DNA of 30,914 nt from a virus (IMGVR_UViG_2537562231_000009:1-30914); one strand, 5' to 3'. Counted from the first letter of the stretch, positions 12,583 through 12,937 are shown. Notes: generated from the letters alone by a model not told the origin. Translations and numbers: made by a program.

Positions 12583-12606
12583 AAGCGCGAGTTTTTACTG
12601 TAGAAT
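12579..12606 (+). promoter_or_regulatory. PR'-like late promoter (TTGAAA, 16-nt spacer, TAGAAT)
   Basis: Near-consensus sigma-70 hexamers directly after Q, the position of the Q-modified late promoter in lambdoid phages. Confidence 0.45.
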
Positions 12607-12781
12607 AGCTGCGGGTGCTTGAGGCTGTCTGCCTCGGGCATGCAGCCGTAAGGCAGACAGAGAAAAGCCCCAGTTAACATTACGCGTCTTGCAGGACGCT
12701 TAACATTAATCTGAGGCCAAATCTATGACTTACAAACTTAGGTTAGCCTCTTACGTGCCGAAAGGCAAGGAGAAGTAGGCT

Positions 12782-12937
12782 ATGAAGCAGCAAAAGGCGA
12801 TGTTAATCGCCCTGATCGTCATCTGTATTACCGTCGTAGTGATAGCACTGGTAACGAGGAAAGACTTCTGCGAGGTACGAATCCGAACCGGCCAGACGGA
12901 GGTCGCTGTCTTCGTAGACTACGAATCTGAGAAGTAA
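12782..12937 (+). CDS. hok: Hok/Gef-family type I toxin, 51 aa (MKQQKAMLIALIVICITVVVIALVTRKDLCEVRIRTGQTEVAVFVDYESEK)
   Basis: Very close to HokD/RelF; single transmembrane helix plus conserved C-terminal motif; structured leader with inverted repeats upstream. Confidence 0.8.
   Translation: MKQQKAMLIALIVICITVVVIALVTRKDFCEVRIRTGQTEVAVFVDYESEK

Follow-up and report, generated by a model that had tools for sequence, protein, structure and literature searches.

A hok/sok cassette of the hokW/hokD subfamily between the antiterminator gene Q and the late promoter of a lambdoid prophage

Introduction

The hok/sok locus (parB) of plasmid R1 is the founding member of its family. It is plasmid-borne and serves plasmid stabilization. 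It comprises the toxin Hok, the leader reading frame mok on which hok translation depends, the convergent antisense RNA Sok and the tac and fbi elements of the mRNA (PMC9841398). The closest described relative of the locus reported here is hokW-mokW-sokW of the Stx2 phages 933W and Sp5 (AF125520; Takada et al. 2021, PMC8621323), whose toxin HokW is 44% identical to R1 Hok (PMC8621323). Experiments have established hokW-sokW as a type I toxin-antitoxin pair (PMC8621323). In Sp5, sokW RNA vanishes after mitomycin C treatment in a RecA-dependent manner, and HokW appears about 1 h before the R endolysin, hokW mRNA being already there before induction; deletion of the hokW locus halves phage release, and HokW helps lysis (PMC8621323).

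Another relative, hokD (relF) of the Qin prophage, belongs to the same cassette family (about 89-91% DNA identity to the present cassette) and is likewise found among the early rightward genes of a lambdoid prophage, co-oriented with Q. The K-12 hokD is a 5′-truncated copy behind relBE that lacks the mok/sok leader, only positions 169-406 of our query finding a match in it. Here we describe a prophage cassette that has the elements of hok/sok, as judged by sequence, and that differs from hokW-mokW-sokW in its position, its promoter -35 region, its mok reading frame and the 5′ tail of its predicted Sok.

Results

A 51-codon hok gene follows Q

The window analysed in this study is a stretch of 30,914 nucleotides of viral DNA (IMGVR_UViG_2537562231_000009). 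It represents a lambdoid prophage, with N (2151-2534) and cI (4555-5262) on the minus strand and, on the plus strand, cII, O, P, a Dam methylase gene, antirepressor genes, NinG, NinH and Q; a lambdoid early operon on the plus strand is evident from N, cI, cII, O and P. The original prediction placed a 51-aa Hok-family type I toxin ORF after Q, and this proved correct: hok starts 199 nt 3′ of the Q stop codon, and its product matches the Pfam profile HOK_GEF (PF01848) over profile positions 1-42 of 42 (77.2 bits, cutoff 22; E 7e-22) and is identical to RefSeq WP_000813244.1 ('Hok/Gef family protein'). The product had been called nearly identical to HokD/RelF, which is roughly right (84% identity to K-12 HokD), HokW of phage 933W being nearer at 92%. 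The Rfam sok model (RF01794; gathering score 59) scores 118.4 bits on 12613-12787, where it aligns from end to end (model positions 1-157 of 157). Given the ORF, the full-profile Pfam match and the end-to-end Rfam match, the presence of a hok locus is confirmed. Its features are listed below; the promoters, the ends of the RNAs and Sok itself were predicted or carried over from homologous loci.

about 12579-13003: whole hok/sok locus, with its own promoter, tac/fbi, mok and convergent sok
12579..12606, plus strand: predicted hok promoter (-35 TTGAAA, 16-nt spacer, -10 TAGAAT)
about 12613..13003, plus strand: predicted full-length hok mRNA, about 390 nt (from the Rfam model start, the fold and the end of 933W hokW homology)
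12613..12624, plus strand: tac, GGGUGCUUGAGG, at the mRNA 5′ end; pairs with fbi
12626..12659, plus strand: 5′ leader hairpin (stems 12626-12633 and 12652-12659; 8 pairs, 99% paired)
12663..12733, minus strand: predicted Sok RNA, about 71 nt (position transferred from sokW of the 933W record by ungapped alignment)
12713-12716, plus strand: mok Shine-Dalgarno GAGG, by sequence reading
12719..12739, no strand assigned: hypervariable block (mok start and Sok 5′ tail)
12725..12778, plus strand: mok leader ORF, 17 aa, in frame with hok (ATG 12725, TAG 12776-12778)
12740..12768, minus strand: predicted sok promoter (-35 TTGCCT 12768..12763, 17-nt spacer, -10 TAACCT 12745..12740)
12769-12772, plus strand: hok Shine-Dalgarno GGAG, by sequence reading
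12782..12937, plus strand: hok ORF, 51 aa, ATG start
12945..12966, plus strand: 3′ UTR hairpin (8 pairs, 3 with compensatory changes)
12987..12999, plus strand: fbi (fold-back inhibition), CCUCAACGCACCC; pairs with tac, with the U-rich GUACUUUAUUU next to it

The span first assigned to the locus, 12583-12937, takes in the ORF and the leader and leaves out the 3′ UTR (12938-13003) with fbi. Two minus-strand ORFs, 12555-12680 and 12828-12992, lie over the locus. Every sequence feature of the hok/sok family is present apart from the mok/hok overlap, which is altered.

The mRNA ends pair and the helices are conserved

Structure prediction, which had been proposed as a check, gave a fold of the 391-nt hok mRNA in which the two ends are paired (minimum free energy -152.5 kcal/mol, z = -6.0). 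We then aligned 50 distinct cassettes, drawn from 80 viral loci with close Hok relatives and from annotated genome loci, and used as pairing controls 3′ partners slid by 1-3 columns and 500 shuffles. Standard pairs filled 99.3% of the cells of the five named helices, compared with 37-43% in the slid controls, and compensatory double changes were found at 7 pairs in these helices versus 1 in each slid control; none of the 500 shuffles came up to these values. The tac/fbi helix (12 pairs, 12613-12624 with 12987-12999) was paired in 99.8% of cells across the 50 cassettes and shows conservation without covariation, because its columns barely vary. One pair of the 5′ leader hairpin is G-C in 24 of the 50 sequences and A-U in 23.

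The structured leader with inverted repeats that had been noticed from the sequence is a genuine hok-type leader, as the Rfam score attests. The particular repeat quoted for it (12623-12660) is, however, the first hairpin of the Rfam sok model rather than the fold-back or the antisense target: the fold-back element is fbi at 12987-12999, and the Sok target is 12663-12733.

The predicted hok promoter has a rebuilt -35 and no terminator follows fbi

The predicted hok promoter is the top promoter-like match in 12400-18500 (10 of 12 positions), and its -35 overlaps the Q stop codon TGA at 12580-12582. The -10 is kept in all cassettes, whereas the -35 reads TTGAAA here and TTGCGG in the canonical cassette. 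The departure stems from a 10-nt insertion relative to the canonical GGTTTGCGGGAAAAGGAGAGTTAA, which makes the putative -35 a new hybrid sequence.

The terminator CCCGCTTCGGCGGG-T5, found directly 3′ of many other cassette copies, is absent after fbi here, which makes the 3′ end given above for the hok mRNA tentative. The experimentally active 933W copy likewise has no terminator after fbi. When the stretch after fbi (12999-13010) was compared with L009-L090, the Q-linked and 933W-type copies had only a U-rich stretch there and no CCCGCTTCGGCGGG-T5. A search between 12400 and 16630 found no plus-strand terminator-like site. The hok promoter may possibly also feed the restriction-modification gene downstream.

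A predicted convergent Sok with a hypervariable 5′ tail

A convergent sok-like promoter, the search for which had also been proposed, is present on the minus strand as TTGCCT-17-TAACCT. Its hexamers are near-invariant across 52 cassettes, and its -10 is the one altered by primer YO-421 when Takada et al. built a promoter-less sokW (PMC8621323). The predicted Sok would begin with a single-stranded 5′ tail able to base-pair with the start codon and Shine-Dalgarno region of mok, and continue with a long terminator-like hairpin and UUUUCU; its fold scores -28.7 kcal/mol (z = -4.7).

The 21 nt at 12719-12739, where the mok start codon and the Sok 5′ tail lie, form a hypervariable block, with a column entropy of 0.83 versus 0.21 for the cassette overall; in the window and the related loci L011-L090, no other stretch of the cassette, which is otherwise 90% conserved, varies nearly as much. 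It occurs in 19 versions among the 50 cassettes, and the window's version is confined to its own lineage. This block is probably the determinant of Sok/hok specificity. Complete E. coli genomes hold a median of 2 cassette copies and a maximum of 9, and the variability is consistent with diversifying selection on Sok/hok specificity between copies in one cell.

Comparison with hokW-mokW-sokW

The 933W/Sp5 cassette aligns with the window at 91% DNA identity over 408 nt (12600-13007) without indels, the homology stopping at about 13007. Shared are the hok -10, tac, fbi, the sok promoter, the Sok hairpin, the missing terminator after fbi and the lambdoid prophage setting. The two differ in the -35, rebuilt in the window by the 10-nt insertion; in the block at the Sok 5′ tail and mok start (ACTTACAAACTT in the window, CTGAACACATGT in 933W); in mok, which has an amber codon in the window and is open in 933W; and in location, the 933W cassette lying near attR on the strand opposite to the late genes. 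The locus is a new allele, at a new position, of an already characterized kind of hok/sok, closest to the Stx-phage hokW.

An inserted block separates Q from the late promoter

The window Q is 76% identical in amino acid sequence to the Q of a Stx2a prophage, the alignment deteriorating after 'YVERE'. The Q body is homologous to 933W-type Q as far as about 12537, and DNA homology to the Stx2a-type Q stops there, after GAGCGTGAA. It is picked up again from about 16557, where the final ~25 nt of a 933W-type Q are found; the stop codon of this 3′ remnant has its equivalent at 16582-16584. The last ~15 codons of the window Q and its stop are new sequence brought with an inserted block, which also contains the hok/sok cassette, a heptamer tract and type IIG/BcgI-like restriction-modification and specificity genes. 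The features of this region are the following.

12157..12582, plus strand: antiterminator Q gene (Pfam Phage_antitermQ PF06530, 162 bits)
12538..16556, plus strand: inserted cargo block, about 4 kb (flanks contiguous in the Stx2a prophage L006, about 35 nt apart)
13112..16564, plus strand: restriction-modification cargo, namely ATG, repeat tract, REase-MTase and specificity genes (Pfam, PADLOC, Tandem Repeats Finder, frame analysis)
ending at 15410, plus strand: type IIG/BcgI-like REase-MTase ORF (Pfam N6_Mtase; PADLOC REase_MTase_IIG, 757 bits)
13121-13358, plus strand: (GACCAGC)x34 tract (Tandem Repeats Finder)
15470-16564, plus strand: specificity subunit (Pfam Methylase_S; PADLOC Specificity_II)
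16557..16858, plus strand: late control region, namely Q 3′ remnant, pR′, qut, terminators and StxS-like RNA (93-94% identity to the Stx2a prophage and 933W)
16572-16599, plus strand: pR′ (from 933W record 20666-20693)
16613-16620, plus strand: qut (from 933W record 20707-20714)
about 16630-16655, plus strand: first terminator (mapped from the 933W record)
about 16830-16858, plus strand: tR′ (mapped from the 933W record)

In the Stx2a prophage the final Q codons overlap pR′, and the StxS/tR′ region follows; window positions 16557-16990 align with this Q-end/pR′/StxS/tR′ unit at 94% column identity. The mapping of pR′, qut and tR′ rests on 93% column identity to the 933W record, in which two terminators are annotated. 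The pR′ start and the tR′ end are 258 nt apart in Sp5 and in an Stx1 phage (Sy et al., PMC7547250), and the mapped positions agree with this spacing. The hairpin at 16630-16649 was also considered as tR′ and was rejected, the one 258 nt from pR′ being the second, at about 16830-16858. A homologue of the region for the small RNA StxS, which runs from pR′ to tR′ and is processed by RNase E in Stx phages, lies at 16601-16858 and is almost identical to that of 933W, although the prophage of the window carries no stx genes.

These positions correct the transcriptional setting first proposed for hok. It had been placed downstream of the late promoter, within the Q-dependent operon; pR′ is instead 4 kb 3′ of hok, which ends at 12937, upstream of both pR′ and qut. 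The promoter-like site just after Q (TTGAAA-16-TAGAAT, 12579-12606) belongs to hok itself, its -10 and all sequence 3′ of the -10 being part of the cassette in every genomic context examined; it was also considered as pR′ and was rejected by aligning the Q end with the Stx2a prophage and 933W. Since hok sits between Q and pR′, it lies outside the Q-controlled late operon, and we infer that it is a distal gene of the early rightward (pR) operon, which N antiterminates, and is not Q-dependent.

A restriction-modification unit adjoins hok

That a restriction-modification module is the neighbour of hok, as originally noted, is borne out by the Pfam and PADLOC matches. The perfect heptanucleotide tract (GACCAGC)x34 comes just after an ATG at 13112 that has a good Shine-Dalgarno, 5′ of the REase-MTase ORF; the RefSeq start of this gene is a TTG after the tract. 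Among near-identical prophages the copy number ranges from 8 to 120. Read from ATG 13112, the REase-MTase ORF is full length only if the number of copies is divisible by 3 (for example, 9 in L050 and 120 in L004); with the 34 copies of the window it is out of frame. This has the look of a restriction-modification system, borne by a lambdoid prophage, whose phase varies by slipped-strand mispairing.

Other features of the window

A tRNA trio of the ileZ-argN-argO type, typical of Stx phages, lies at 17020-17266. Where stxAB would be, there is a gene for a TerB-domain protein (17439-17870; Pfam TerB, 61 bits) with a small hydrophobic-looking ORF next to it. The Rfam family STnc100 matches at 18039-18240 (plus strand, 150 bits), and the anti-GcvB small RNA AgvB abuts it on the opposite strand at 18241-18302 (96 bits, a perfect consensus match), both just upstream of a SASA-family esterase gene (18450-20303). 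Rfam matches to a P1/P7-type C4 antisense RNA with a1/b1 targets and to isrK at 9637-9835, a part of the nin region that precedes the antirepressor genes, suggest an immI-like antirepressor control module.

Distribution of the cassette and of the Q-hok junction

The cassette of ~406 bp is present in 4691 of 5426 complete E. coli genomes (about 86%), at 10,489 places. The longest neighbouring ORFs were co-oriented with hok in 52 of 61 cases upstream and 59 of 59 downstream, a crude measure taken over contexts that are not independent. In several other prophages, as in Qin, the cassette lies ~2.8 kb upstream of Q and co-oriented with it, whereas in the window hok comes after Q.

The Q-hok junction is found in about 31 of the 5426 complete genomes. 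It is common to Q alleles that are only 90% identical and to loci with differing downstream restriction-modification genes, and every allele with this Q C-terminus has hok strictly linked to it. PhiR12_3 is the only other phage record with the window's Q allele, and its arrangement is identical; a literature search for a published description of the Q-hok arrangement or of PhiR12_3 gave nothing relevant. The window allele occurs at >=99% identity, that is, at least 99%, in 16 complete genomes.

mok ends at an amber codon before hok

Codon 18 of mok is TAG in the window lineage and CAG in all other allele groups, the TAG being found in 3 of 52 unique cassettes, all from this lineage. It lies 3 nt before the hok ATG. 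The mok ORF therefore ends past the hok Shine-Dalgarno and yet before the hok start codon, which alters the mok/hok overlap. The underlying C-to-U change retains the predicted pair as a G-U wobble.

In R1, mok overlaps hok out of frame. The R1 codons so read agree with those named in PMC9841398. In the window, mok is in frame with hok and stops before it.

Other Q-linked alleles have lesions in hok itself: L014 and L015 have hok Q4* in addition, and L004, L092 and L093 have a hok frameshift, while the copies in L003 and L091 are intact. No hok ORF lesion was seen in the 73 non-Q-linked cassettes compared. The lesions at the Q-linked site suggest attenuation or decay there; as the compared loci are phylogenetically related, the excess is suggestive only.

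Discussion

In this study, we found after the Q gene of a lambdoid prophage what is very probably a complete hok/sok cassette of the hokW/hokD subfamily. It arrived in company with a restriction-modification unit, the two making up a block of ~4 kb inserted in the 3′ end of Q, between Q and pR′. Toxicity, neutralization by Sok and 3′ processing have been shown for HokW, to which the toxin is 92% identical, and its sokW.

On the model of R1 and Sp5 (PMC8621323, PMC9841398), hok mRNA would be made constitutively in the lysogen and held inert by tac/fbi pairing, and slow 3′ trimming, as in those systems, would activate it. Unstable Sok would pair with the mok start region, blocking translation of mok and hence of hok and leaving the duplex open to RNase III. 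Should the supply of Sok stop, because the prophage is lost or induced or because another phage shuts off the host, Hok would be translated, insert into the inner membrane and collapse the membrane potential. After induction, pR transcription would pass hok in the sense direction and run head-on into the sok promoter; we infer this readthrough because hok is co-oriented with the N-antiterminated pR transcript and no terminator-like site follows Q. A role in lysis timing, raised in the original prediction, has experimental support for the 933W/Sp5 homologue (PMC8621323), albeit by way of Sok loss on induction and not of Q-dependent transcription.

How much toxin the amber allele yields is a separate matter. 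With mok ending at the amber, Hok could be made only by termination-reinitiation or by direct initiation, and output is probably attenuated and may be abolished; we suspect attenuation on account of the amber itself and of the hok lesions in other Q-linked copies. Reinitiation at the hok AUG is plausible, since the ribosome passes the hok Shine-Dalgarno before stopping. A stop 3 nt before an AUG and past the Shine-Dalgarno is a geometry that usually allows termination-reinitiation. In R1, the loss-of-toxicity mutations recovered included premature mok stops 5′ of the hok start, and five of the possible stops of this kind abolished toxicity; it was concluded that mok must be translated 'at least up to the hok SD', and at the equivalent codon a change as slight as the synonymous E18E blocked translation and abolished Hok production (PMC9841398). 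It is accordingly a serious possibility, though we hold it somewhat improbable, that the copy is decaying or silenced, the amber keeping the hok start closed so that no Hok is made and a Sok-producing or inert remnant is carried along with Q and the restriction-modification unit. The confinement of the TAG to the window lineage and the Q4* and frameshift lesions of the sister Q-linked alleles fit such decay. Against it stand the intact Hok ORF, both Shine-Dalgarnos, both promoters and all helices, the conservation of the allele in 16 complete genomes, the reinitiation geometry and the predicted pair retained as a wobble; moreover, the further lesion (Q4*) in copies that already have the amber could mean that the amber allele is still toxic.

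Should the amber silence Hok altogether, the locus would have ceased to function as a toxin-antitoxin pair. The neighbour of the cassette raises the question of a joint function. The two could form a defence island in which restriction acts first and Hok brings about abortive infection once an invader's host shut-off lets Sok decay. In all Q-linked loci hok/sok and restriction-modification genes adjoin, even though the latter vary, and PADLOC calls the unit as type IIG plus a specificity subunit; T4 plating drops when R1 hok/sok is present (Pecota and Wood 1996, cited by PMC8621323). We nevertheless regard this as unlikely, given that no PADLOC model matches Hok, that the cassette occurs in thousands of contexts without restriction-modification genes, that the window's restriction-modification ORF is not in frame, and that several hok copies among the Q-linked loci carry lesions.

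The position of hok 199 nt past Q, with a strong promoter-like site between them, would also invite the view that hok is transcribed from a Q-modified late promoter within the late operon, as a Q-timed accessory to lysis, the more so as HokW aids lysis and phage release in Sp5. This is very improbable. This Q family has its pR′/qut/tR′ unit intact 3′ of hok and of the restriction-modification genes, at 16572-16858; the promoter after Q goes with the hok cassette in every place where the cassette occurs and bears no similarity to pR′/qut; and in Sp5 the toxin precedes the endolysin and its mRNA precedes induction. Still more far-fetched is a takeover of the hok promoter as the loading site of a variant Q with a new C-terminus, with readthrough of hok, restriction-modification genes and tR′ from 12613: the strict Q-hok linkage and the lack of a terminator after hok would suit it, but the Q body is 76% identical to a Stx2a-type Q whose matching pR′/qut is conserved 4 kb further on, copies without a nearby Q have an unchanged sequence from the hok -10 onward, and there is no similarity to qut.

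Returning to hok as the distal gene of the early operon, a broader conjecture, which we ourselves think doubtful, is that lambdoid hok/sok cassettes are placed co-oriented at the distal end of an N-antiterminated early operon, so that readthrough on induction hits the sok promoter and shuts off Sok, and that the Q-proximal dose is harmful and leads to recurrent lesions. The sites would be after Q on pR in the window, ~2.8 kb before Q in Qin-type loci, and beyond int/attP on pL after circularization in 933W/Sp5. If true, this would explain why, in Sp5, sokW RNA is lost in a RecA-dependent manner and HokW appears early, and a stronger rebuilt promoter under heavy early transcription would explain the mok amber, hok Q4* and the frameshift.

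In itself, one more hok/sok copy matters little, the cassette being common and its closest homologue already characterized. What the analysis changes is the transcription map: in this phage lineage ~4 kb of cargo separates Q from its promoter, and because the block parts Q from pR′, genes after Q should not be assumed to be Q-dependent. The series of alleles at one prophage position (mok open, mok amber, hok nonsense and hok frameshift) would make a small natural experiment on the need of hok for mok, and the Q-linked alleles could be used for testing readthrough of the early operon as the trigger that removes Sok on induction.
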